This document shows, one piece after another, positions 12,673 through 38,066 of a DNA stretch of 40,851 nucleotides. Within the stretch, counting starts at the first letter, position 1. The number at the start of each line of letters is the position of its first letter. Made by a program: the position numbers and the translations under genes. Below the pieces are notes generated by a model. The model was not told the DNA's origin, ran no database searches, and was given only the letters and a program-made list of their open reading frames with translations. Origin of the DNA: a virus (taxonomy: Duplodnaviria; Heunggongvirae; Uroviricota; Caudoviricetes); IMG/VR virus record IMGVR_UViG_2671180411_000016; one strand, written 5' to 3'.

Positions 12673-14067
12673 TGATTTCCATCAGCATTACACTCTGATT
12701 TTTTAATTCATCGATCACTTCCTCTGGACGGGAATCCTGATCGATAAATTTCAACGCCTGCAACACCCGAACCGCATCAATCTGACGTATATCACCGCCC
12801 TGACGCAATGACTGAACAGCCAGCGCGGAGGATGAGTCAAACACCTGGGCAGATACATCCAGTTCAGTGCGCACATCCACATTGCCACCGCAACTCTCTC
12901 CGATCCATTCCGCCATTATCTGGAGAATATTATCGAGGGCATCTTCGAGGGAGTTCGCCATTGTATAAAGCGGCGAGTTTTCCTGCATTCGCTCTTCATT
13001 AGTCTGATCAACAGATTTGGTGGATGTATTTTCAGCACGCAGAAGTTTAGCGCCGGCATGACGCATCTGATTTTCCAGCTTCTCAAGTGATGTTTCGCCA
13101 GATTCTATCGCTGCGCCACTATGTTCAACATATTCGAGGCCATTTTTTGTTCTGTCCTCAAAAATCGTAGCGGTGGATGCACCAACCGTCAGTTCTTCAT
13201 TCCTGTCCAGCCCGTAGGCCACCAGCAATGGAACGCGGGCAACATGAAGAATATTGTCCTGCTCGCTCTGGCTTTGCCAGTGCTTGATATTCAGCAAGCC
13301 AAGATTAAGCAATGGCGGTGTACCACGCATAAATCCTGTTTTCTTCGTGTACAGTGTTACCAGAGGAATATCATCACGGCTGGTATTCCATGACTCATGA
13401 AGCGTCCAGACAGATTNNNNNNNNNNNNNNNNNNNNNNNNNNNNNNNNNNNNNNNNNNNNNNNNNNNNNNNNNNNNNNNNNNNNNNNNNNNNNNNNNNNN
13501 NNNNNNNNNNNNNNNNNNNNNNNNNNNNNNNNNNNNNNNNNNNNNNNNNNNNNNNNNNNNNNNNNNNNNNNNNNNNNNNNNNNNNNNNNNNNNNNNNNNN
13601 NNNNNNNNNNNNNNNNNNNNNNNNNNNNNNNNNNNNNNNNNNNNNNNNNNNNNNNNNNNNNNNNNNATCTCTTTCATATCCGTTCGTGGATAGTCCACCA
13701 GCGCATGTGCCACACCATACTGAAATGCGAGGCTGAAAAATTGCTGCGCCCACACATCCAGTCGGCTCCCCTCCATGTCGATATTTTCTGCATATTCCCT
13801 GATTTTTGCCGGCGTTTCCTCACTCAATACTGTCGGCTCTGCAAATATGCGCCCAATATTTTGCTTGATGCTTTCTTCATACACAGGAAGTAGCGTAGCC
13901 ACAGACAGGCGTTTTTTATAAGCGTCTTCATCTTCGTTAGGCCATTTTGGGAGATAATTTTCCCCCTGCCTGCGCATTTCAAGCGTACCGCCCATCAGTG
14001 CGTCGTTAATATCCCACGCCTCCAGCATATCGTTATAGTCGAGGTTGGGTGTTGATATATCAGCCAT
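12653..14067 (-). CDS. portal protein (interrupted by N-run 13417..13666; frame not continuous as given)
   Basis: Two ORF pieces (13357..14067 N-terminal, 12653..13753 C-terminal) flank the N-run; position between terminase and head morphogenesis gene. Confidence 0.75.
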
Positions 14068-14069
14068 AA

Positions 14070-15377
14070 TTAAATCCGAAGTGATGTGACTCTTCCGGTC
14101 GGTTTGACAATAGGGAATTGCTTAACGATGAAATAACCTCCGGCATCATTCGGGTGATCATTGCCAGATTTTTTATCAGGCTCCCCCTTCTCATCCCAGA
14201 CCTGTTGCTCCAGAGATTCGGCATATAACGGGCAACGCTTCACATTAACTTTATAGCGACGCTCACCATTGGCATTGCAGAACATTGCATTCATTGAGTT
14301 AACGCGATCTTTTACTGGCGGGTTCGAGCTGTTCACCACAACGTTAAAACCAGCCTGCTTAAGCTGGGCTATATCCGTCGTACTTGCGTTACTTGATTTT
14401 CTGGAATCCCCGGAAGCATCTGGATAAATATAAATTTCCCTCACTTTCCGGTAATCATTCCCATCATACAGCCAGAAGCGTTCTTTAATGATGCGGATCA
14501 TATCCGGCGTATCGTAGGCATTGATGATTTCAGTTACCGCACATGGAAGCCCCAAACGCAGCACATGGACGATTCCCGCCATCTTTCCAACGTTAAAATC
14601 CATCCCAATATAAATCGGCTCCCCTGGCTGCTCCACTTCTTCGCAATTATTCAGTTTCCGGTCAAACTGATGGTAAACAGTACCACTTGTCAGGTTAGTA
14701 AACTGTCCTCGAAGATAGGCTTTAATCAGCTCTGGAGGGTATGATTCAAGAAGCGAAGGAATGTAATCTGCTGGCAGGTTCTTTTCATTATCGAAAGTAG
14801 ATGCCTGCACCAGACCATACAGTGAGGCCAGCTCTGTTTTTTCACGCACGGCTTTAACAAACTGCTCGTAGACAAATTTGAATCCTTCCGGCGTGGTTGT
14901 AACGTCAATACCGTTGCGAAGTCCATCAATCTTATAACGCATACGTGCAATTATCTTGCGCCACGCCGTTCTGGCTTTTTCCTTCGGCAAAATGTCCAGT
15001 TCATCCACCAACGCATTACCAATTTTGAAACCGACGATCGTTTGTGGCTTCTCCATCGATCTGCAGATAGTGGTTCCCCGATACTGGCGTCCGTAATAAA
15101 AGTGAACCTCTTTATTTCCCTCATTAATTTTTACGTTCAATCCCCAGTCAGCAGCAACTTCTTCCACTGTAGGGTAAAAAATATCGCGAATTTGGGGATA
15201 CGTTGGCGCAAAATATCCCTGATTTATACCTGGATGCTCCCAAATCCCCTTGCATATGCCGCCACACCCAACCCATGTTTTGCCCGAGCCAAAACCAGCA
15301 ATATAGGCTTTAAATTTATGGGGCATTGAAAGAAATCGCGCCTGAGGCACATTAAGCGTCGGAGAGATCATCTTCAT
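14070..15377 (-). CDS. terminase large subunit
   Basis: Walker A GFGSGKT near the N-terminus; 436 aa ORF; first codon of the track ORF is GTG, ATG at 15377. Confidence 0.9.
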   Translation of the reverse strand: MKMISPTLNVPQARFLSMPHKFKAYIAGFGSGKTWVGCGGICKGIWEHPGINQGYFAPTYPQIRDIFYPTVEEVAADWGLNVKINEGNKEVHFYYGRQYRGTTICRSMEKPQTIVGFKIGNALVDELDILPKEKARTAWRKIIARMRYKIDGLRNGIDVTTTPEGFKFVYEQFVKAVREKTELASLYGLVQASTFDNEKNLPADYIPSLLESYPPELIKAYLRGQFTNLTSGTVYHQFDRKLNNCEEVEQPGEPIYIGMDFNVGKMAGIVHVLRLGLPCAVTEIINAYDTPDMIRIIKERFWLYDGNDYRKVREIYIYPDASGDSRKSSNASTTDIAQLKQAGFNVVVNSSNPPVKDRVNSMNAMFCNANGERRYKVNVKRCPLYAESLEQQVWDEKGEPDKKSGNDHPNDAGGYFIVKQFPIVKPTGRVTSLRI

Positions 15378-16455
15378 CACTCCTTACTCTGGCATCAACC
15401 ACATTAATATTGATCGCCACAGGCTGGGGATGTTCATTATCTTCCACCGTTTCGATCTCTTTGCGCAGCTTCTGGTTTTCCATTCTGCGCCGTTCAATTT
15501 CCAGTTCCCGTAGCCGCTTATCTGCACATAAAGCCCCGCCAGCAGAAAACAAACGCAACAATTCACGNNNNNNNNNNNNNNNNNNNNNNNNNNNNNNNNN
15601 NNNNNNNNNNNNNNNNNNNNNNNNNNNNNNNNNNNNNNNNNNNNNNNNNNNNNNNNNNNNNNNNNNNNNNNNNNNNNNNNNNNNNNNNNNNNNNNNNNNN
15701 NNNNNNNNNNNNNNNNNNNNNNNNNNNNNNNNNNNNNNNNNNNNNNNNNNNNNNNNNNNNNNNNNNNNNNNNNNNNNNNNNNNNNNNNNNNNNNNNNNNN
15801 NNNNNNNNNNNNNNNNNNNNTCTGCTATATCGCGCCACTGGTAGAGATGATTCTCGCCCCAGCAATAACGGCAGTTAACACGGCGAAATTGTGCAAGCTG
15901 ATTGGGGTCGGCCAGGACAATAGCCATCAACTGACTCACTAGTAAATCCAGGTCTGCGGTATAGCGTTTCTGGTACTGATTGCGGAAGTAGCTGATAGCG
16001 CGAAAAACCCTGGCATTTCTAAGCATACGACTGGCGTTGCTGTTAGCTGTCGCACCTTGCCCCTCATAACCGGCTAGTCGGTACGCCTCTGTCGGCTTTT
16101 TACCCTGAGCAACAAGCATCGCAAACTTAGCCTGCTGGTCAGAAATGCCGAATTCATCGGGACAGAACGAAAATTCCTCCGCGTCGCCCTCATTCAGGCC
16201 CGCATCGAATACTGGCTTTTTTTCCTGAGATTTTTCGTTCCGCTTTTGTGCAGTCTGCGCAGATTTTTTCTGCGCACTTTTTTGCGCAGTTTTGCACATT
16301 TCTGTCTGCGCATTTTTCGGAGTTTTTTTGATGTAACGACGGGCTGTTGCGTAATTCAGTCCCCTTGCTTCACACCATGCCACCGGAGATATACCGGAGC
16401 GGGTGTATTCAGCAATATACTCCTGCTGCAACGCCCCCCAGTCCGGTCTGCTCAT
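15352..16455 (-). CDS. terminase small subunit (interrupted by N-run 15568..15820)
   Basis: N-terminal HTH-like region, K/A/Q-rich linker, TEAYRLAGY motif typical of small terminases; overlaps the large terminase start. Confidence 0.8.
   Translation of the reverse strand: MSRPDWGALQQEYIAEYTRSGISPVAWCEARGLNYATARRYIKKTPKNAQTEMCKTAQKSAQKKSAQTAQKRNEKSQEKKPVFDAGLNEGDAEEFSFCPDEFGISDQQAKFAMLVAQGKKPTEAYRLAGYEGQGATANSNASRMLRNARVFRAISYFRNQYQKRYTADLDLLVSQLMAIVLADPNQLAQFRRVNCRYCWGENHLYQWRDIAXXXXXXXXXXXXXXXXXXXXXXXXXXXXXXXXXXXXXXXXXXXXXXXXXXXXXXXXXXXXXXXXXXXXXXXXXXXXXXXXXXXXXRELLRLFSAGGALCADKRLRELEIERRRMENQKLRKEIETVEDNEHPQPVAININVVDARVRSDEDDLSDA
16246..16330. repeat. five copies of TGCGCA (one TGCACA) each followed by a T-run, inside the 5' part of the small-terminase gene
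   Basis: Read directly: TGCGCA at 16256, 16271, 16283, 16307 and TGCACA at 16293, each followed by T4-7. Confidence 0.6.
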
Positions 16456-16458
16456 CAG

Positions 16459-16710
16459 TTAGTCCTGATTTTTATCCACCCTGAGTAGTTCGCGCAGAGC
16501 AAAGGCATCCCCTTTTCTGGCAAGCTTAAACAATGCCGCTCGTAACTCGGCTTCACCTTTCGCTCTGCCCTTACGGATGGCCGCATAAAAATCTGTCATT
16601 GCTTCCCGATTTTCTTTCAGTCGGTTCAGATCAACATCCAGAACGTCAGCGATTTGTTGTGCAGTCATCCGGCACGCTGCCAGAGACTCGACTTTCGAAT
16701 ACGGAATCAT
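16459..16710 (-). CDS. small hypothetical protein upstream of terminase
   Basis: 83 aa ORF; its stop lies 3 nt from the small-terminase ATG. Confidence 0.45.
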   Translation of the reverse strand: MIPYSKVESLAACRMTAQQIADVLDVDLNRLKENREAMTDFYAAIRKGRAKGEAELRAALFKLARKGDAFALRELLRVDKNQD

Positions 16711-17578
16711 TTGTCACCCCCATTGATATGCAGGGTGTCTTCTTCCTGTATTTTTCGTGAAGGATTTTTACTGCAGCGTTGTTCCAGGTGACCTGATGGT
16801 GAATGCGTTTATGACTGGCACCCATAAGTGAGATTTTTACGCACGACGGCGCATACATGACGGAGTAAAAACTTTTAACGTAGGTTCCGGAATCCAGATA
16901 CAGCTCGGTCATTCCGCCGCTGTTTTTCTGCGTCTGTTTCTGCCCTAACTGGACAGCACCGATCGTCATAAACAATTCACCACAGCGACCGAGATTCGTG
17001 TACGTATTCACATCCTCGTTAATGCGCCCCATGAATGAGAACGGTCGATCAACCGAACAGATAAAGCTGTTCATTGCCTTGCGTTTCACCCACGAAGCAT
17101 GGCCGCCATTGTCACCAAGAAAATCCCCGCCCTGCGACATAGCGATGGAAAGAGCAGGTATTGATTCGTAGTACGCAAGCATTTCAGAAAGGATCTCATC
17201 CAGTTTCCTTATCGGGAAATAGGCCTGGTCATAGTTGCGATCCACCCGAAACTGGAACTCGTGATAATCATCATCGAGCTGAATGAAGTATTTACACCCG
17301 ACCAGTTTTGCCTGGTCGAAACAGGCATTACGGGCGTAAAAAATTGAGCGGCGGTCACTAAAATTATCGGCTTCGTCAAAACGACTAGCAATATCGGCTT
17401 TGGAAAATACCAGCACCTGTTCACCAAATTCAGCCATGTACTGATGCCGTGTCTTATCTTCATCATCAACAACGATAAAAATTTTCCCGGTATAGCCAGC
17501 ACGACGCAACGTCCGGTAAGTCAGAACTTTGTCCGGTCGCCCGTGAGTCAGAATAAAGGCGCAAAAATCATCACGCAT
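16646..17578 (-). CDS. hypothetical protein with two acidic DxD-like motifs (IVVDDED, QLDDDY); possible nucleotide-sugar transferase-like fold
   Basis: ORF 16646..17596; ATG 17578 is preceded by GGAGGAGG and overlaps the ParB-like stop by 8 nt. Confidence 0.5.
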   Translation of the reverse strand: MRDDFCAFILTHGRPDKVLTYRTLRRAGYTGKIFIVVDDEDKTRHQYMAEFGEQVLVFSKADIASRFDEADNFSDRRSIFYARNACFDQAKLVGCKYFIQLDDDYHEFQFRVDRNYDQAYFPIRKLDEILSEMLAYYESIPALSIAMSQGGDFLGDNGGHASWVKRKAMNSFICSVDRPFSFMGRINEDVNTYTNLGRCGELFMTIGAVQLGQKQTQKNSGGMTELYLDSGTYVKSFYSVMYAPSCVKISLMGASHKRIHHQVTWNNAAVKILHEKYRKKTPCISMGVTNDSVFESRVSGSVPDDCTTNR

Positions 17579-18359
17579 ATTCCTCCTCCCCGCCATGCAT
17601 GATCTCCACCATGCGCTGCGTCATTCGGACAAATCCATTTTCAATAGCCTGCTGATAATCAATGATCACCAGCGCCGACTCCTCGAAAAGGCACTGAATT
17701 TCAGCGGGGGCATGAGCGTAATAGTCCGCAATTCTGCTGAAATTAAACACCGTGTGACGTTCTGCTGCACACAGGAGGAATTTCTCAATATCAGGATCAA
17801 GGGACGCCGAACGTATCCGGCTGATCAGCTCCTGAGTTTTCGTATCGTCGTACAGTTCACTGATATCCGGTTTACCGCCTGACGGCTCATAAACAGGCGT
17901 ATCAATTTTCGTCGTATACGGCTCCTCCTCATTTCCTGTACCGGGCAAAACATCCGTCAACAGTTCATCAATTTCTGCCGGGATGAAGCCTGTCAGGGAG
18001 ACATCAAAATCAGCATTGATTAGGTCCGACAGCTCCATCCGCAACAGATCTTCATCCCAGCCAGCATTCATCGGCAGGCGATTATCTGCCAGGCGGTACG
18101 CCTTTTTCTGCTCATCCGTCAGGCCAGACAGAACAATGACCGGAACAGAATCCATTTTGAGCATTTCAGCCGCCATAACACGACCGTGACCCGCAATAAT
18201 TTCGCCCTTTTCGTCAATCAGCACCGGATTAGTCCAGCCGAATTGCTTAATACTTTCTACCAGTTGTGCCACCTGCTCAGTACTGTGCGTCCTGGCGTTG
18301 TGCGCATACGGTGACAATTCTTGTAATGGGCGATAGACTATCTTTAATTTCTCGCTCAT
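17571..18359 (-). CDS. ParB N-terminal (ParB/sulfiredoxin-like nuclease) domain protein
   Basis: 262 aa; motif IIAGHGRVMAA typical of the ParB N-terminal domain. Confidence 0.75.
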   Translation of the reverse strand: MSEKLKIVYRPLQELSPYAHNARTHSTEQVAQLVESIKQFGWTNPVLIDEKGEIIAGHGRVMAAEMLKMDSVPVIVLSGLTDEQKKAYRLADNRLPMNAGWDEDLLRMELSDLINADFDVSLTGFIPAEIDELLTDVLPGTGNEEEPYTTKIDTPVYEPSGGKPDISELYDDTKTQELISRIRSASLDPDIEKFLLCAAERHTVFNFSRIADYYAHAPAEIQCLFEESALVIIDYQQAIENGFVRMTQRMVEIMHGGEEEYA

Positions 18360-18496
18360 ACAGCCTTGCTTTATGAATAAAACGCACCCCAGCAGCCAGT
18401 GCTACTGGGGGCGGAGGTGTTGCTGGTAAAGTTAGGTATTGGATCAATGAGTGAGTCAACATAATATTAAACTCACAATTATAAATCAGCCATATA

Positions 18497-19954
18497 TTAG
18501 GAGCGCCAAAAAAAACCTGAAAACAATATAATAACAGGATAAATTTCAAGGCGACCAAGAATCATAGCTATGCACATTAAATATTTTGCAATGTCATTAA
18601 GCACTCCGAATGACGATGCAGTAGCCCCAAAACCTAATCCCATATTATTAATACATGCAGCCACTGTTGCAAATGATGTAAGAAAATCATATCCCATACC
18701 ATTTAACACCAGTATAAAAAACACCGTGAAGAGAGTATAAAGAAAAAAGAAACTCCATACAGACCTCATTACACGATCTGTAACTATCTTCCCTCCTACA
18801 TTTACACTCAACAACGCTCTGGGATGAGAAAGCTGATTTATCTCGTGTTTGCTTTGTTTGAAAAGTATAAGAAATCGAAGTGACTTAATTCCACCACAGG
18901 TTGAACCTATACATCCCCCAAAGAAACTTGACAACAGCAAAAACACTATCGTGTGCGTGGGCCAGTTTGCATAATCCTGCGTAGCTAAACCATTATCAGT
19001 GAGCATGGAGCTGGCAAGAAAAAACGAATGAATAAAACTTCCATGCAAGTCATACATACCTATATGCCAGACCTGGAAAGAGGTAACAATGATCACCCCT
19101 AAGGCTATTAACAGAAAGAAACGAAGTTCAATATCTCTGATTAAAGGTTTTATCGTTTTTCTGCTAATAACAATATACCAAAGAGTGAAGTTGAAAGCCG
19201 ATAGCAGGGAAAAAGAACCAGCCACCAGCTCAACCAAATAGTTATTAAAATATCCGATACTCTCGCTATGAGTTGAGAAACCACCAAGCGAAACTGTGGA
19301 AATCCCGTGACAAATAGCATCAAACAAAGGCATTCCTGCAAGTCTATAACAGACAATACAAGCAATACCTAATAAAGAATAAGTTATCCACAGTGTCCGT
19401 GACGTATCGGCCAGGCGGGGAGTGAGTTTGTCATCCTTAAATGGCCCCGGCATTTCTGACTGATAAAGCTTTGCACCACCAATACCCAATAATGGCAATA
19501 CTGCAACCGCCAGAACAATAACTCCTAAACCACCTATAAAATTTAACTGTGACCGATAGTACAAATATGCCCGAGGTAATGAACTAACATCATCAATTAC
19601 AGTTGCTCCTGTTGTTGTTATTCCAGAAACCCCTTCAAACAGAGCATCAATGAACGTTAAATTAAGTTCTGAGTCAATCCATAAAGGGAATGCACTAATA
19701 ACAGAAAACAAAATCCAAAACATTACAATTATAATAAACCCATCACGGGTACGTAATTGAATGCCAGATTTCTTAGTTGTATACCACGCTCCGCCACCAA
19801 TGCAAAAAAATATAACGAAAGTTATAAAGAAAACGAACAGGCTTTTTTCTTTATAAAACAATGCTACAACCATTGGTGGCAACATTGAAAGACTATAGAG
19901 CCAAACCAGGAACCCACACATATGAGTAACAACTCTTACATGAGATGTATTCAT
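18497..19954 (-). CDS. trkG: TrkG potassium uptake protein (TrkH family)
   Basis: Polytopic membrane protein; from ATG 19954 (MNTSHVRVV) it is 485 aa, matching remembered TrkG; AT-rich relative to neighbouring phage genes. Confidence 0.9.
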   Translation of the reverse strand: MNTSHVRVVTHMCGFLVWLYSLSMLPPMVVALFYKEKSLFVFFITFVIFFCIGGGAWYTTKKSGIQLRTRDGFIIIVMFWILFSVISAFPLWIDSELNLTFIDALFEGVSGITTTGATVIDDVSSLPRAYLYYRSQLNFIGGLGVIVLAVAVLPLLGIGGAKLYQSEMPGPFKDDKLTPRLADTSRTLWITYSLLGIACIVCYRLAGMPLFDAICHGISTVSLGGFSTHSESIGYFNNYLVELVAGSFSLLSAFNFTLWYIVISRKTIKPLIRDIELRFFLLIALGVIIVTSFQVWHIGMYDLHGSFIHSFFLASSMLTDNGLATQDYANWPTHTIVFLLLSSFFGGCIGSTCGGIKSLRFLILFKQSKHEINQLSHPRALLSVNVGGKIVTDRVMRSVWSFFFLYTLFTVFFILVLNGMGYDFLTSFATVAACINNMGLGFGATASSFGVLNDIAKYLMCIAMILGRLEIYPVIILFSGFFWRS

Positions 19955-20091
19955 ATCTAAATATTCTTTCAATTATAACCACCTTGCTGCAATATTATGA
20001 TTATACTGTATAAAATTTAACTCCTCTTAGATCTTACTTCACTGTTCCTTATGAAACAATCATCAAAATGAATCATATTGTAGTTAAGATT

Positions 20092-20738
20092 TTACTTTAA
20101 ACACTGCTCGGTTATGTATTGCTGAGCACCTTCAAGTTGGGCCTGCATCATTACCAGTCGTTCCCGGAGGGTGAAATAATCCCGTTCAGCGGTGTCTGCC
20201 AGTCGGGGGGAGGCTGCATTATCCACGCCGGAGGCGGTGGTGGCTTCACGCACTGACTGACAGACTGCTTTGATGTGCAACCGACGACGACCAGCGGCAA
20301 CATCATCACGCAGAGCATCATTTTCAGCTTTCGCATCAGCTAACTCCTTCGTGTATTTTGCATCGAGCGCAGCAACATCACGCTGACGCATCTGCATNNN
20401 NNNNNNNNNNNNNNNNNNNNNNNNNNNNNNNNNNNNNNNNNNNNNNNNNNNNNNNNNNNNNNNNNNNNNNNNNNNNNNNNNNNNNNNNNNNNNNNNNNNN
20501 NNNNNNNNNNNNNNNNNNNNNNNNNNNNNNNNNNNNNNNNNNNNNNNNNNNNNNNNNNNNNNNNNNNNNNNNNNNNNNNNNNNNNNNNNNNNNNNNNNNN
20601 NNNNNNNNNNNNNNNNNNNNNNNNNNNNNNNNNNNNNNNNNNNNNNATGGCGTTATCACGGTAATGATTAACAGCCCACGACAGGCAGACGATGATGCAA
20701 ATAACCAGAGCGGAGATAATCGCGGTTACCCTGCTCAT
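20092..20738 (-). CDS. Rz i-spanin (interrupted by N-run 20398..20646; frames on the two sides differ as given)
   Basis: N-terminal TM segment [21 protein letters not shown]; C-terminal piece contains the embedded Rz1 frame; ATG overlaps the endolysin stop (ATGA). Confidence 0.8.
20151..20336 (-). CDS. Rz1 o-spanin lipoprotein, embedded in the Rz frame
   Basis: 61 aa, lipobox VVGC, proline-rich (PPPPP, PPP) C-terminal part. Confidence 0.8.
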   Translation of the reverse strand: MRKLKMMLCVMMLPLVVVGCTSKQSVSQCVKPPPPPAWIMQPPPDWQTPLNGIISPSGNDW

Positions 20739-21698: not shown

Positions 21699-22094
21699 CT
21701 AACCTCGCATGTCAAAGCCAGATTTCTGAAAATCTCTGTAGACTTCCGGATTGTTGAAGGCCGGAAATTTGGCTTTATGAGCTGCGGACTTTATCGCTTC
21801 GCAATAGGCTTTATCACCGTTACTGGTAGATATTTTTAACGCCGTGCCATCCTGAGAGAATTCCATATGCAACCTGCATTTTTTCCCTTTCCAGTTATGC
21901 GGCTCATCAAGTTTGGCATTAATTGCAGCTCTGATTCCCCGCGCTTGCGCCCCCCATTCATCCTGATCATCCCAGCGTCCTGAACTGCAACTACCTGTAG
22001 CAGTAGTTTTGTGGCAATCTGAAGGGTGTAAAGGTGTGCATCCCGCAACAAAACCGACCCAAAAAGTCAACATAACGATTTTCTTTAATCCCAC
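21699..22094 (-). CDS. lipoprotein with TolA C-terminal (domain III)-like domain, paralog 1
   Basis: 131 aa, signal peptide plus lipobox VAGC; C-terminal region is paralogous to the second lipoprotein and resembles the remembered C-terminus of E. coli TolA. Confidence 0.65.
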   Translation of the reverse strand: MGLKKIVMLTFWVGFVAGCTPLHPSDCHKTTATGSCSSGRWDDQDEWGAQARGIRAAINAKLDEPHNWKGKKCRLHMEFSQDGTALKISTSNGDKAYCEAIKSAAHKAKFPAFNNPEVYRDFQKSGFDMRG

Positions 22095-22244: not shown

Positions 22245-22673
22245 TCAGGGTTTAAAATCCAGCACCCCATTTTGAAATACTTTATATACTTCCGGCGAAG
22301 GGGGGGCAGGTATATCAGCATTCTTTATCGCATTCATCGCTTCACGACATAAATCGAGGTCTCCACTTTCTCTTTTAACCTCCAGTAGAAGGCCATTCGG
22401 GGCCATATGCATTCTCAGTGTACACTCTTTTCCTGAATACTTACTCGCATCCCCGAACTGTTTTTCGATGGCGCTCTTGATTTGATGGGCATACAGACGG
22501 ATATCCTCACTAACATCAGAAGTACGTTCAGATGAACTCACATACTGTGTCTCTATTGCTTTATCGGAGTAATATGATGTACGGTCATGATAATTTGTCG
22601 ATACAGCATCAGTGCACCCGATAATAATCCCACTAATAATCAACGTAAGAATTGATGCGCTACGAAAACCCAT
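22245..22673 (-). CDS. lipoprotein with TolA C-terminal (domain III)-like domain, paralog 2
   Basis: 142 aa, lipobox IIGC; ...SGKECTLRMHMAPNGLLLEVKRESGDLDLCREAMNAIKNADIPAPPSPEVYKVFQNGVLDFKP resembles the remembered TolA C-terminus (...CTLRIKLAPDGMLLDIKPEGGDPALC...YEVFKNAPLDFKP). Confidence 0.7.
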   Translation of the reverse strand: MGFRSASILTLIISGIIIGCTDAVSTNYHDRTSYYSDKAIETQYVSSSERTSDVSEDIRLYAHQIKSAIEKQFGDASKYSGKECTLRMHMAPNGLLLEVKRESGDLDLCREAMNAIKNADIPAPPSPEVYKVFQNGVLDFKP

Positions 22674-35456: not shown

Positions 35457-38066
35457 ATGAGCACAAAACCACTCTTCCTGTTACGGAAAGCGAAAAAATC
35501 ATCCGGTGAACCTGACGTCGTCCTGTGGGCAAGCAACGATTTTGAATCGACCTGTGCCACTCTGGACTACCTGATCGTTAAGTCAGGTAAAAAACTGAGC
35601 AGCTATTTTAAAGCTGTTGCCACGAATTTTCCTGTCGTTAATGACCTGCCCGCTGAAGGTGAGATCGATTTTACCTGGAGTGAACGCTATCAACTCAGCA
35701 AAGACTCCATGACATGGGAACTAAAACCGGGAGCAGCACCAGACAACGCTCACTATCAAGGCAATACCAACGTCAACGGCGAAGACATGACTGAGATTGA
35801 GGAGAATATGCTACTCCCAATTTCTGGCCAGGAACTGCCCATTCGTTGGCTTGCTCAACACGGCAGCGAAAAACCGGTAACGCACGTTTCACGCGACGGA
35901 CTCCAGGCATTACACATTGCTCGGGCTGAAGAACTACCGGCTGTTACTGCCCTGGCTGTTTCCCACAAAACCAGCCTGCTCGACCCGCTGGAAATTCGCG
36001 AACTCCACAAACTGGTTCGTGACACTGACAAAGTTTTCCCTAATCCTGGTAATTCAAACCTGGGACTGATAACTGCTTTTTTCGAAGCATACCTGAACGC
36101 TGACTACACCGATCGAGGACTGCTGACAAAAGAGTGGATGAAGGGTAATCGTGTTTCACACATCACTCGCACGGCTTCCGGTGCTAATGCTGGCGGCGGA
36201 AACCTCACCGATCGCGGCGAAGGTTTCGTACACGATCTGACGTCACTGGCGCGGGACGTAGCCACTGGCGTACTGGCCCGTTCAATGGATCTGGACATCT
36301 ATAACCTTCATCCGGCACACGCTAAACGCATTGAGGAAATTATCGCTGAAAATAAACCGCCCTTTTCTGTTTTCCGCGACAAATTCATCACCATGCCTGG
36401 CGGGCTGGATTATTCCCGCGCCATCGTGGTTGCGTCCGTAAAAGAAGCACCAATTGGGATCGAGGTCATCCCCGCGCACGTCACTGAATATCTGAACAAA
36501 GTACTGACTGAAACCGATCATGCCAACCCTGATCCGGAAATCGTGGATATTGCCTGCGGTCGCTCCTCTGCCCCGATGCCGCAGCGAGTAACAGAAGAAG
36601 GAAAACAGGATGATGAAGAAAAACCGCAACCATCTGGAACAACGGCAGTTGAACAGGGAGAGGCTGAAACAATGGAACCGGACGCAACTGAACATCATCA
36701 GGACACGCAGCCGCTGGATGCTCAGTCACAGGTAAATTCTGTTGATGCGAAATATCAGGAACTGCGGGCAGAACTCCATGAAGCCCGGAAAAACATTCCA
36801 TCAAAAAATCCTGTCGATGCCGATAAATTGCTTGCTGCATCACGTGGTGAATTTGTTGACGGAATTAGCGACCCGAACGANNNNNNNNNNNNNNNNNNNN
36901 NNNNNNNNNNNNNNNNNNNNNNNNNNNNNNNNNNNNNNNNNNNNNNNNNNNNNNNNNNNNNNNNNNNNNNNNNNNNNNNNNNNNNNNNNNNNNNNNNNNN
37001 NNNNNNNNNNNNNNNNNNNNNNNNNNNNNNNNNNNNNNNNNNNNNNNNNNNNNNNNNNNNNNNNNNNNNNNNNNNNNNNNNNNNNNNNNNNNNNNNNNNN
37101 NNNNNNNNNNNNNNNNNNNNNNNNNNNNNNGATCCGGAGGAAATGGAAGGCGCTGAACATCCGCACAATGAGAATGCTGGCAGCGATCCGCATCGCGATT
37201 GCAGTGATGAAACTGGCGAAGTCGCAGATCCCGTAATCGTAGAAGACATAGAGCCAGGTATTTATTACGGAATTTCGAATGAGAATTACCACGCGGGTCC
37301 CGGTGTCAGTAAGTCTCAGCTCGATGACATTGCTGATACTCCGGCACTGTATTTGTGGCGTAAAAATGCCCCCGTGGACACCACAAAGACAAAAACGCTC
37401 GATTTAGGAACCGCTTTCCACTGCCGGGTACTTGAGCCGGAAGAATTCAGTAACCGCTTTATCGTAGCACCTGAATTTAACCGCCGGACAAACTCCGGAA
37501 AAGAAGAAGAGAAAGCGTTTCTGAGGGAATGCGCAAGCACAGGAAAAACGGTTATCACTGCCGAAGAAGGCCGGAAAATTGAACTCATGTATCAGAGCGT
37601 TATGGCTTTGCCGCTGGGGCAATGGCTTGTTGAAAGCGCCGGACACGCTGAATCATCAATTTACTGGGAAGATCCTGAAACAGCAATTTTGTGTCGGTGC
37701 CGTCCGGACAAAATTATCCCTGAATTTCACTGGATCATGGACGTGAAAACTACGGCGGATATTCAACGATTCAAAACCGCTTATTACGACTACCGCTATC
37801 ACGTTCAGGATGCATTCTACAGTGACGGTTATGAAGCACAGTTTGGAGTGCAGCCAACTTTCGTTTTTCTGGTTGCCAGCACAACTATTGAATGCGGACG
37901 TTATCCGGTTGAAATTTTCATGATGGGCGAAGAAGCAAAACTGGCAGGTCAGCTGGAATATCACCGCAATCTGCGAACCCTGGCTGACTGCCTCAATACC
38001 GATGAATGGCCAGCTATTAAGACGTTATCACTGCCCCGCTGGGCTAAGGAATATGCAAATGACTAA
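35457..38066 (+). CDS. recE: exodeoxyribonuclease VIII RecE (interrupted by N-run 36891..37130)
   Basis: 869 aa ORF; N-terminal [39 protein letters not shown] matches remembered RecE; stop overlaps the recT start. Confidence 0.95.

Follow-up and report, generated by a model that had tools for sequence, protein, structure and literature searches.

A translationally coupled ParB-like and TAGT-family glycosyltransferase gene pair heading the late operon of a Rac-like prophage, a possible DNA glycosylation module

Introduction

The TAGT family of glycosyltransferases was reportedly first defined by Iyer et al. 2013 (NAR 41:7635), in work that is also said to have linked ParB to modification systems. 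The known glycosyltransferases of this family decorate 5-hydroxymethyl-pyrimidines. Characterised relatives that act on DNA are the T2/T6 enzyme, the phage GT-A enzymes linked to 5mYOX, and JGT. Pyle et al. (2024) defined the signature R...DDD...ED(Y/F) and reported a structural match to JGT. A eukaryotic member, the large cytoplasmic protein GREB1, O-GlcNAcylates ER-alpha. Recent papers call a large share of phage TAGT/GT-A genes 'solitary', since they lack both a precursor pathway and an assigned function; one study counts 288 of 753 phages in this class, and another about 65% of GT contigs.

ParB-like proteins have been found alongside modification enzymes. In the 5mYOX176/ParB176 system (PNAS 2026, PMC13229309), a ParB-like protein consisting of an NBD and a CTD, without an HTH, is encoded in an operon with an enzyme of a post-replicative DNA-modifying family. 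Such proteins activate phage thymine dioxygenases on double-stranded DNA, the NBD and CTD are both required, and the pair shows cognate specificity. ParB-N domains are also fused to DNA methyltransferases, and these fusions are enriched in prophages (Kaljevic et al.).

Here we describe a Rac-like prophage locus in which a ParB-like gene is coupled to a TAGT-family gene, and which provides a tractable E. coli example of the solitary class. The proposal made in an earlier note on this DNA, that the pair is a DNA modification or anti-restriction module, is plausible: it fits the enzyme family and the ParB partner, although no pathway to an acceptor base was found. More specifically, we tentatively read the pair as a late-expressed, ParB-assisted DNA glycosylation module, at somewhat less than an even chance. 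Should the target be DNA, the locus would add a second enzyme class, after thymine dioxygenases, to those that work with a ParB-type partner, and the DNA modification itself might be new. Should it be protein, viruses would have here a widespread system of protein glycosylation.

Organisation of the gene pair

The locus lies in a window of 40,851 nucleotides, this being the whole stretch of DNA analysed, and all its features discussed here are on the minus strand. The first gene of the pair (18359..17571; phrog_620, E 1.7e-90) encodes a ParB-like protein of 262 aa, the full-length form of YnaK. The second (17578..16646; phrog_842, E 7.5e-104) encodes a GT-A glycosyltransferase of the TAGT family. 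Upstream is trkG (18497..19972). Downstream are a small ORF (16459..16710) that overlaps the 3' end of the transferase gene, then terS (15352..16455) and terL (14070..15380), both assigned from Pfam and PHROG matches and from the RefSeq annotation of an identical locus. The pair is thus placed between trkG and the terminase genes, as had been noted earlier, and is a two-gene translationally coupled cassette that heads the late (packaging) operon of a Rac-like lambdoid prophage.

The coupling junction (17571..17592) consists of a GGAGGAGG ribosome-binding site, the transferase ATG (17578..17576) and the ParB TGA (17573..17571). The sequence ATGCGTGA is common to both genes and forms an overlap of 8 nt. 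Before the transferase start the minus strand reads CGGGGAGGAGGAAT-ATG, and GGAGGAGG is therefore present just upstream. Both the overlap and the site, described in the earlier note, can be read directly in the sequence. Its view that the genes are translationally coupled is strengthened by homologous loci, where the stop again runs past the next start in 74 of the 83 non-redundant pairs, more often than by chance (most often by 11 nt, in 35 pairs, and then by 8 nt, in 18 pairs).

Counted from the ATG at 17578, the transferase has 310 aa. The length given earlier, 311 aa, corresponds to the number of codons including the stop; the two motifs reported with it are present, IVVDDED at residues 35–41 and QLDDDY at residues 100–105. 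An alternative in-frame ATG further upstream, at 17596, would make a protein of 316 aa. The 310-aa start is favoured because homologues begin M-R-D-D-F.

A consensus scan identified a terminator-like hairpin with a T-run at 18387..18410 (a 10-bp stem with 7 GC pairs and the tail TGCGTTTTAT). It follows the trkG moron and lies 28 nt upstream of the ParB start. Expression of the pair would accordingly rely on late transcription that is antiterminated.

The statement in the earlier note that K-12 Rac keeps the pair as fragments is right for one gene only. Of the ParB gene, MG1655 retains just the leading 87 codons, as ynaK, whereas the glycosyltransferase gene is deleted entirely, leaving no fragment, as are the terminase and head genes. 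Of 5,426 complete E. coli genomes, 867 contain 80% or more of the 2.2-kb region used as query (window 16400–18600).

The glycosyltransferase

The downstream protein matches the Pfam TAGT family (PF20691) over residues 8–222 (E 3.7e-34), scoring 118.9 bits where the curated gathering cut-off is 27.5. Structure prediction, which had been suggested for this protein, was run using AF2 and gave a model with a pLDDT of 91.8 and a GT-A fold (Rossmann-like, with a DxD). On the alignments, QLDDDY is the invariant DxD motif of the transferase. The likeness to nucleotide-diphospho-sugar transferases, proposed from two acidic motifs, is borne out by the Pfam match, the modelled fold and this motif. Across the family, residues D102–D104 vary little or not at all, and D38 and D41 are close to invariant.

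The full signature is R14, D102-D103-D104, E188-D189 and H260-H261, where the invariance of R14, D102–D104 and E188-D189 was judged on alignments of 12 and 132 sequences. The protein thus carries, in invariant form, the R...DDD...ED signature of the DNA-acting enzymes, which argues for DNA as its target. The protein is also basic (median pI 8.9), as would suit nucleic-acid binding. Its final 22 or so residues show no conservation. A search of PDB sequences returned nothing at E <= 1, and NCBIfam and PADLOC gave no match. The RefSeq name is 'GREB1-related protein'.

The model was compared with known folds using Foldseek. Models of viral TAGT proteins match it with TM 0.79–0.87, which together with the Pfam match and the GT-A fold supports the DNA reading. 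There is also a structural match to the beta-glucosyl-HMC-alpha-glucosyltransferase of a T4-like phage (E 1.5e-8, TM about 0.6). In the PDB the matches are to GT-A enzymes in general, with TM about 0.4. The best of these folds include SunS, ThuS, COLGALT1, ppGalNAc-T2 and glycogenin, which are peptide or protein glycosyltransferases, and a further match (9jn3) is a nucleoside glycosyltransferase bound to Ara-A.

These folds bring in the main rival to DNA glycosylation, namely protein O-glycosylation. The acceptor would be the enzyme's own partner, or else a packaging, virion or host protein, and the ParB-type protein would serve as substrate or scaffold. The peptide and protein glycosyltransferases among the best PDB folds count in its favour, as does GREB1, a protein-glycosylating member of the same Pfam family and to that extent an argument against DNA. 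But PDB matches at this level are generic to GT-A and do not discriminate between acceptors; GREB1 has the TAGT-type glycosyltransferase domain in common with our protein and nothing beyond it; and every characterised viral member of the family acts on DNA. Overall we consider protein O-glycosylation somewhat unlikely.

Among the closest described systems are the TAGT enzymes associated with 5mYOX/TET in phages (Pyle et al., 2024) and kinetoplastid JGT, with which our protein shares the Pfam family, the GT-A fold and the R...DDD...ED signature. The 5mYOX/TET-associated enzymes are likewise phage-encoded, and relatives have tandem second transferases and sugar-tailoring enzymes. Relatives of the present transferase are fused to a second TAGT domain, to SAM methyltransferases or to a sulfotransferase. 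By analogy with known DNA hypermodification, such fusions suggest that an exposed glycan may be elaborated further, which favours the DNA reading; the methyltransferase and sulfotransferase fusions would also fit the tailoring of a glycoprotein glycan.

PF20691 is also matched by the T2/T6 beta-glucosyl-HMC-alpha-glucosyltransferase; the T6 enzyme scores 37 bits against it, compared with 119 bits for our protein. There is no pairwise or profile-to-sequence similarity between the two (BLASTP best E 1.6; hhalign probability 0.2%), and this lack of similarity to the one classic enzyme is a point against the DNA reading. The T6 enzyme puts a further, second glucose on alpha-glucosyl-5hmC, and the genome encoding it has both 5hmC synthesis and an alpha-GT; neither exists here, no alpha-GT or dCMP hydroxymethylase being found in the annotated prophage. 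The name 'beta-glucosyl-HMC-alpha-glucosyltransferase', which homologues of this gene receive in PHROG-based annotation, was rejected on the same grounds, there being no T6 signal, no 5hmC pathway and no alpha-GT.

Source of an acceptor base

The annotated Rac-like prophage (a 42-kb region) contains no TET/JBP and no hydroxymethylase of the thymidylate-synthase type, and the complete phage c5 (31.8 kb) contains no source of 5hmC or 5hmU. A scan of neighbouring families covered 300 flanking genes at 50 non-redundant loci; neither Tet_JBP nor thymidylate synthase is among the 25 commonest families per set, beyond which a single TET/JBP occurrence is possible. The locus thus differs from the 5mYOX/TET-associated systems, in that neither the neighbouring genes nor the genomes examined yielded a C5-methyltransferase, a 5mYOX/TET or a ThyS-type hydroxymethylase. 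As no enzyme making hydroxymethyl-pyrimidines was found, the 5hmC/5hmU acceptor appears to be missing. This weighs against the DNA reading, and in favour of a protein acceptor. Nor does the searchable literature report any modification for phages carrying the pair, which also tells against DNA.

To our knowledge, the ends are the only places where canonical duplex DNA offers a hydroxyl acceptor, so that new chemistry would be required for DNA to be glycosylated here. The cassette might attach a sugar directly to phage DNA that is canonical and unmodified, at a base heteroatom, the backbone or the genome ends; a hydroxymethyl-pyrimidine precursor would then play no part, and the partner would act as an NTP-gated loader. 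This form of the proposal seems quite unlikely. If true, it would represent a new DNA modification chemistry, present in about one sixth of complete E. coli genomes and in viruses that infect four bacterial phyla as well as haloarchaea.

The ParB-like partner

Full-length YnaK has an N-terminal domain of the ParB/Srx type (the ParB-CTPase fold) spanning residues ~1–135, which matches Pfam ParB_N (PF02195) with 29.3 bits against a cut-off of 26.3 (E 8.7e-7). It retains GHGR at residues 57–60 (with the box II arginine, R60), D92-N93 (box III) and R23. The ParB N-terminal domain with its GHGR motif, as named in the earlier note, is therefore present, whereas the term 'nuclease' is a legacy name: the domain is an NTP-binding ParB/Srx fold, in which no sign of nuclease activity was found. 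In the AF2 model the N-domain is confident, and confidence is low past residue 135. A motif PYT.K...P.YEP (~147–160) is conserved although predicted to be disordered, and is followed by an acidic, helical C-terminal domain (~165–255). The C-terminal 120 aa have no Pfam match.

There is no DNA-binding domain or HTH in the AF2 model or the Pfam scan, and the full-length protein has a net charge of -24. A strongly acidic partner with no DNA-binding domain is a point against the DNA reading. On the other side, the N-domain is closely related to those fused to phage DNA methyltransferases: it matches the ParB-methyltransferase fusion family phrog_498 (E 6.1e-51, residues 3–141) and PADLOC MTase_II (E 1.5e-38, residues 10–144). 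This supports DNA as the target and counts against protein. The arrangement differs from those fusions in that no methyltransferase domain is present, the catalytic module being a separate, coupled polypeptide that would transfer a sugar rather than a methyl group.

Some database names, such as 'chromosome (plasmid) partitioning protein', together with the ParB_N domain, would make YnaK a true partition ParB that keeps the phage genome as a plasmid. TIGR00180 scores 38 bits against a cut-off of 58.45, over the N-domain only; YnaK has neither an HTH nor a parS-binding domain; no parA is annotated in the 42-kb prophage region; the prophage is integrated; and 69 of 72 clusters show the gene linked to one for a glycosyltransferase. 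A partition function is extremely improbable, and is effectively refuted by the lack of HTH and ParA.

The two parts of YnaK relate to the transferase very differently. Pairwise identities of the transferase correlate with those of the C-terminal domain (Spearman 0.86, Mantel p 0.001), compared with a Spearman coefficient of 0.14 for the ParB-N domain. This co-variation fits cognate-pair specificity, but part of it could come from the two coding regions being so closely linked. In at least nine non-redundant loci, for example Vibrio phage pv27, the partner is made of the C-terminal domain alone, these short partners (122–165 aa) being C-terminal domain only by their HMM coordinates. Judged from these sequence comparisons, the invariant partner is the acidic C-terminal domain of ~115 aa and not the ParB-N domain; the ParB/Srx domain of the first gene appears exchangeable, and the C-terminal domain dedicated to the transferase. 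From its pairing and co-variation with the transferase, it is delimited here as approximately residues 132–262 (17571..17965). It is a previously undescribed module and the true conserved partner, and, judging by the co-variation, may bind the transferase.

The co-variation of partner and enzyme is compatible with the cognate-pair specificity described for 5mYOX176/ParB176 (PMC13229309). A likeness to that system lies in the operonic arrangement of a ParB-like NBD and CTD protein without an HTH beside an enzyme of a DNA-modifying family, and it supports the DNA reading, as does the correlation itself. The differences are that the enzyme here is a glycosyltransferase and not a dioxygenase, and that the C-terminal domain alone can act as partner, whereas NBD and CTD are both required in that system. 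The 5mYOX/TET-associated transferases, for their part, differ from ours in the obligate ParB-type partner with a dedicated C-terminal domain, and in its fixed site before terS/terL.

YnaK also offers a candidate protein acceptor. Of 66 non-redundant sequences, 64 have a Ser or Thr at residue 149, within the proline-rich PYT.K...P.YEP segment, and the place of this residue in a conserved yet predicted-disordered segment is consistent with O-glycosylation of the partner by its own enzyme. An acceptor that travels with the enzyme would explain the tight co-variation, and also the ~43% identity seen between bacterial and archaeal viruses.

Under the DNA glycosylation reading, which we continue to prefer, the two proteins would be produced late in infection at a fixed ratio. 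The C-terminal domain of YnaK would bind the transferase, and the ParB-N domain, probably dimerising upon NTP binding, would hold or activate the enzyme on double-stranded phage DNA. Replicated DNA would then receive, ahead of packaging, a sugar that the enzyme takes from a host NDP-sugar, and this could give a conditional benefit against host defences. We infer the physical binding, the DNA target, the timing and the benefit from the evidence described above.

Distribution and conservation

The partner gene lies directly upstream of the transferase gene in 280 of 283 loci, or 69 of the 72 clusters formed at 70% identity (non-redundant viral loci). The cassette is carried by phages of Proteobacteria, Firmicutes, Actinobacteria and Bacteroidota, together with viruses of haloarchaea. 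In about 44 of 50 non-redundant loci one of the three genes that follow is TerL, and ~88% of loci have the pair directly before terS/terL. The cassette accompanies three different terminase families, including Terminase_3 and Terminase_6N, of both headful type and cos type. In large phages it is located among replication genes (PolA and beta-clamp; primase, exonuclease, helicase), far from the terminase. Conservation as a pair, near terL or among replication genes, counts in favour of the DNA reading. The gene context speaks against a protein acceptor, being always DNA packaging or replication and never the head or tail structural block.

The position before terS/terL, and the legacy annotation 'ParB-like nuclease', could instead point to a packaging accessory, as the earlier note also proposed: the ParB-like protein would help terminase to recognise or cut concatemers, much like the HNH proteins of HK97-like phages, with the transferase in a secondary role. 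The cassette combines, however, with unrelated terminase families, and its siting in the replication module of large phages is remote from terminase; moreover the conserved core is the C-terminal domain and transferase, and not ParB-N. The related Lactobacillus delbrueckii phages LL-Ku, Ld17, Ld25A and phiLdb (relatives of c5) are viable with the pair truncated or deleted. This shows the pair to be dispensable and tells against a packaging role that is essential. The proposal is disfavoured on these grounds and we regard it as very unlikely; an essential packaging factor was rejected, the deletion variants being viable.

In the cos phage c5 the cassette adjoins the cos site. This raises the question of some other hydroxyl target, such as RNA 2'-OH, DNA 3' or 5' ends at cos or pac, or a nucleotide-derived immune signal, with a counter-defence or regulatory role and with the ParB/Srx domain used for nucleotide recognition. 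The ParB-CTPase fold does bind CTP, ATP or GTP, differing by protein (PMC12704722), the PDB match 9jn3 acts on a nucleoside, and the cassette is accessory, being lost in some phages. Such a target has no precedent in the TAGT family, however. The cassette is found with headful-type and cos-type terminases alike, pairing persists where C-terminal-domain-only partners have no nucleotide-binding domain, and a position in the late operon suits an early anti-signalling function poorly. We consider this explanation distinctly improbable.

For DNA glycosylation, the loss of the pair from viable c5-like phages is as would be expected of an accessory or counter-defence function. The cassette is a self-contained unit, mobile across domains of life and dispensable.

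The gene pair and its setting

The pair consists of two overlapping genes on the minus strand, located from the ORF listing and by direct reading. The first encodes the ParB-like protein of 262 aa (18359..17571, minus), ending with TGA at 17573..17571, and the second the transferase of 310 aa (17578..16646, minus), beginning with ATG at 17578..17576. The two ORFs have ATGCGTGA in common, an overlap of 8 nt, and GGAGGAGG lies directly 5' of the transferase ATG. Both the overlap and the GGAGGAGG site had been described in an earlier note on this DNA, and direct reading confirms them. The downstream protein was there given as 311 aa; the ORF is real, but that figure includes the stop codon. An alternative in-frame ATG further 5', at 17596, would give a protein of 316 aa. 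The 310-aa start is preferred because homologues begin M-R-D-D-F.

The prophage is Rac-like (recET, kilR, sieB and ydaSTUV are present), and its gene order is lysis genes, trkG moron, the pair, a small ORF, terS, terL, portal and head genes, which places the pair between trkG and the terminase genes as the earlier note had it. trkG is closed off by a terminator-like hairpin (18410..18387, minus) that lies 28 nt ahead of the ParB start. trkG itself (18387-19972, minus, hairpin included) is a moron insertion separating the ParB gene from the lysis genes, an insert of a kind absent from the homologous cassettes of other phages. The small ORF (16459-16710, minus) overlaps the last ~22 residues of the transferase, which are non-conserved and of low pLDDT. 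It matches an internal part of the small-terminase family phrog_309 (E 8e-23), and has the look of a mosaic junction, or of what is left of a split terS.

At least 80% of a 2.2-kb query (window 16400-18600) was found in 867 of 5,426 complete E. coli genomes, and among 55 E. coli-type viral contigs, 52 carry the two ORFs in intact form. K-12 MG1655 keeps only the first 87 codons of the ParB gene, as ynaK, joined to ydaY, its transferase, terminase and head genes being deleted. The pair had been described as reduced to fragments in K-12, which holds for the ParB gene but not for the transferase, of which nothing is left. In NZ_CP058571 (strain EC2), RefSeq carries 'ynaK, pseudogene, missing C-terminus', covering only the first 86 codons of an intact 262-aa gene (21703-21960 of that locus, window 18102-18359). 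This call looks like an artefact of taking the truncated K-12 YnaK as reference.

The transferase

The transferase matches the Pfam family TAGT (TET-associated glycosyltransferase) at 119 bits. Its AlphaFold2 model, with 132 homologues as input, has a pLDDT of 91.8, and when searched with Foldseek against the PDB it finds GT-A glycosyltransferases only. Its matches among viral models include TAGT proteins (TM 0.79-0.87) and a beta-glucosyl-HMC-alpha-glucosyltransferase of a T4-like phage (E 1.5e-8). The earlier guess of a DxD transferase, made from the motifs IVVDDED (residues 35-41) and QLDDDY (100-105), was therefore correct, QLDDDY being the DxD. Within the family, residues R14, D102-D104, E188-D189 and H260-H261 vary little or not at all. 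The protein thus carries the R...DDD...ED signature described for DNA-modifying phage GT-A enzymes and the kinetoplastid base-J glucosyltransferase JGT (Pyle et al.). The T6 enzyme and the transferase are both in PF20691; BLASTP and hhalign find no similarity between the two, and the name that phage annotation pipelines transfer from T6 is not to be trusted.

A full-library search returned 1,323 transferase-family clusters at 50% identity (E <= 1e-3). Some relatives are tandem TAGT-TAGT proteins, and others are fused to a SAM methyltransferase or Sulfotransfer_2 domain (such architectures occur in P0248, P0252, P0266, P0268 and P0290). At some loci a radical-SAM enzyme accompanies a second TAGT; in L100 and L102 the radical-SAM gene lies directly 3' of the TAGT gene(s). 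The product seems to be an exposed glycan, open to extension and tailoring. Three homologues (P0270, P0304 and P0315) have an N-terminal extension of ~180 aa with no Pfam match.

The ParB-like protein

The partner matches Pfam ParB_N, as the earlier note had proposed from the GHGR motif, which occupies residues 57-60. The nucleotide-binding residues R23, G57/G59/R60 and D92-N93 are kept. The subtype of this domain is that fused to phage DNA methyltransferases (phrog_498, E 6e-51; PADLOC MTase_II, E 1.5e-38). The protein falls short of the full-length ParB model TIGR00180, reaching 38 bits against a cut-off of 58.45 with the N-domain only; a true partition function is extremely improbable.

The AlphaFold2 model of the partner is confident for the N-domain only. 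The segment PYT.K...P.YEP (residues 147-160) is predicted to be disordered, yet it is highly conserved: among 66 non-redundant sequences, residue 149 is Ser or Thr in 64 and Tyr157 is likewise present in 64. In the helical part that follows, R201, A211, Y214 and D234 are found in 66/66. The 140-aa gene upstream of the transferase in a Vibrio jumbo phage, when aligned with partners from six distant phages, corresponds to the C-terminal domain alone (46% identity to residues ~145-262 of the window protein). At least nine such partners are complete genes, mostly from large phages, and HMM coordinates show that every short partner consists of the C-terminal domain only, and none of the N-domain only.

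Pairwise identities of the transferase follow those of the C-terminal domain closely (Spearman 0.86, Mantel p 0.001, 66 non-redundant full pairs), the corresponding value for ParB-N being only 0.14. L224 and L303 have N-domains that are 84% identical and transferases that are only 25% identical, while in L189 and L201 the transferases are 68% and the N-domains only 18% identical. ParB-N domains appear to have been swapped between cassettes. The transferase is basic (median pI 8.9), the two domains of the partner are acidic (pI about 4.7-4.8), and the partner encoded in the window has a net charge of -24. These sequence comparisons suggest that the transferase is probably bound by the partner's C-terminal domain, and that ParB-N would be an exchangeable accessory module.

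Distribution and dispensability

Searches of phage genomes with tblastn found the order ParB-then-transferase in Lactobacillus gasseri phi jlb1, L. delbrueckii c5, Nocardia NTR1, Porphyromonas phages and the archaeal Haloarcula virus HHTV-2, the Lactobacillus and haloarchaeal transferases being ~43% identical to the E. coli protein. A set of 326 loci was then analysed with purpose-built HMMs. Where there is room for a partner gene (283 loci), 280 have it directly upstream and on the same strand (69/72 after clustering transferases at 70% identity). Stop and start overlap in 74 of 83 non-redundant pairs, most commonly by 11 nt (35), then by 8 nt (18). By Pfam scan, a large terminase is among the three downstream genes in about 44 of 50 non-redundant loci (Terminase_3 in 23, Terminase_6N in 21), while the three upstream genes are heterogeneous. 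In phages other than the small temperate ones, the surrounding genes are those of DNA replication: L103 has a methyltransferase, a TAGT, a C-terminal-domain gene and a second TAGT between DNA polymerase A and the beta-clamp, and the Vibrio copy lies between primase/exonuclease and helicase genes.

In the genus of phage c5, the pair is intact in c5, split in phiLdb and internally deleted in Ld17. In LL-Ku it is reduced to one ORF lacking the first ~80 residues of the transferase, and in Ld25A there remains a 141-aa ORF that matches the last ~45 transferase residues in its C-terminal part. Since these four are viable phages, the cassette is accessory. This argues against an essential role in packaging, the earlier note having suggested a packaging accessory, and we regard any packaging role for the pair as very unlikely.

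Possible function

The best-supported reading, which we hold tentatively, is a late-expressed, ParB-assisted DNA glycosylation module. It is favoured by the family membership and catalytic signature of the enzyme, its basic character, the DNA-methyltransferase type of the ParB domain, the DNA-transaction gene contexts, the accessory status of the cassette, and a precedent shown by experiment, in which one subclass of thymine dioxygenases needs a phage ParB-like protein (NBD and CTD present, HTH absent) as its activator on dsDNA, with cognate-pair specificity (PNAS 2026, PMC13229309). Phage GT-A enzymes glycosylate 5hmC, and the neighbours of phage GT genes include ParB-like and terminase genes (Pyle et al.).

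The weakness of DNA glycosylation is the missing acceptor. Annotation and a Pfam scan of unassigned ORFs found no TET/JBP, C5-methyltransferase, ThyS-type hydroxymethylase or DNA polymerase in the prophage, and none of these was found in the complete phage c5 (31.8 kb), whose largest unassigned ORFs have no Pfam match. Neither Tet_JBP nor thymidylate synthase is among the 25 commonest families upstream or downstream of the pair in the 50 non-redundant loci. Within the limits of these checks, these phages do not make the acceptor that the family normally uses (5hmC, 5hmU, or a sugar already on them). About 65% of GT contigs are without any 5mYOX (TET/JBP-type dioxygenase) or ThyS (Pyle et al.), and solitary TAGT homologues occur in 288/753 phages, their function being called undefined (2026 NAR paper).

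The main rival is protein glycosylation, possibly on the partner's own conserved segment around Ser/Thr149. It needs no hydroxylated base, and no source of one was found; the acceptor would travel with the enzyme, and GREB1 provides a precedent (RefSeq names the transferase 'GREB1-related protein'). We consider it rather unlikely. RNA, DNA ends or nucleotide signals as acceptors are improbable. If DNA glycosylation is true, the chemistry is new.

Both families and their occasional adjacency are already known and annotated. Glycosyltransferases go unmentioned in the 2025 survey of the ParB-CTPase fold, and we found no experimental work on the cassette in the papers searched. What is new is that the cassette is self-contained, translationally coupled and common to viruses of bacteria and of archaea, that it holds a fixed place ahead of the terminase genes and apparently lacks a precursor pathway, and that its conserved core is an acidic C-terminal domain, not described before, which co-varies with the enzyme.

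Other features of the window

Five masked runs of ~250 N each (13417-13666, 15568-15820, 20398-20646, 30032-30263 and 36881-37130) break the portal, terS, Rz-region, DUF1627 and recE frames, so that ORF lengths in these places carry no meaning. A possible moron or defence pair, as yet unclassified, is formed by two neighbouring ORFs (333 and 363 aa; 26919-29027, minus) situated between the replication genes and the nin-like region. Pfam gives only faint matches for them (GNAT, 9e-4; HEPN/RES N-terminal domain, 1.9e-4) and PADLOC none, and strain EC2 has a frameshift in one of the two. A TolA C-terminal domain (E 1.3e-14 and 2.4e-23) is present in two further prophage ORFs (21699-22094 and 22245-22673, minus), which lie a short way upstream of the lysis cassette.
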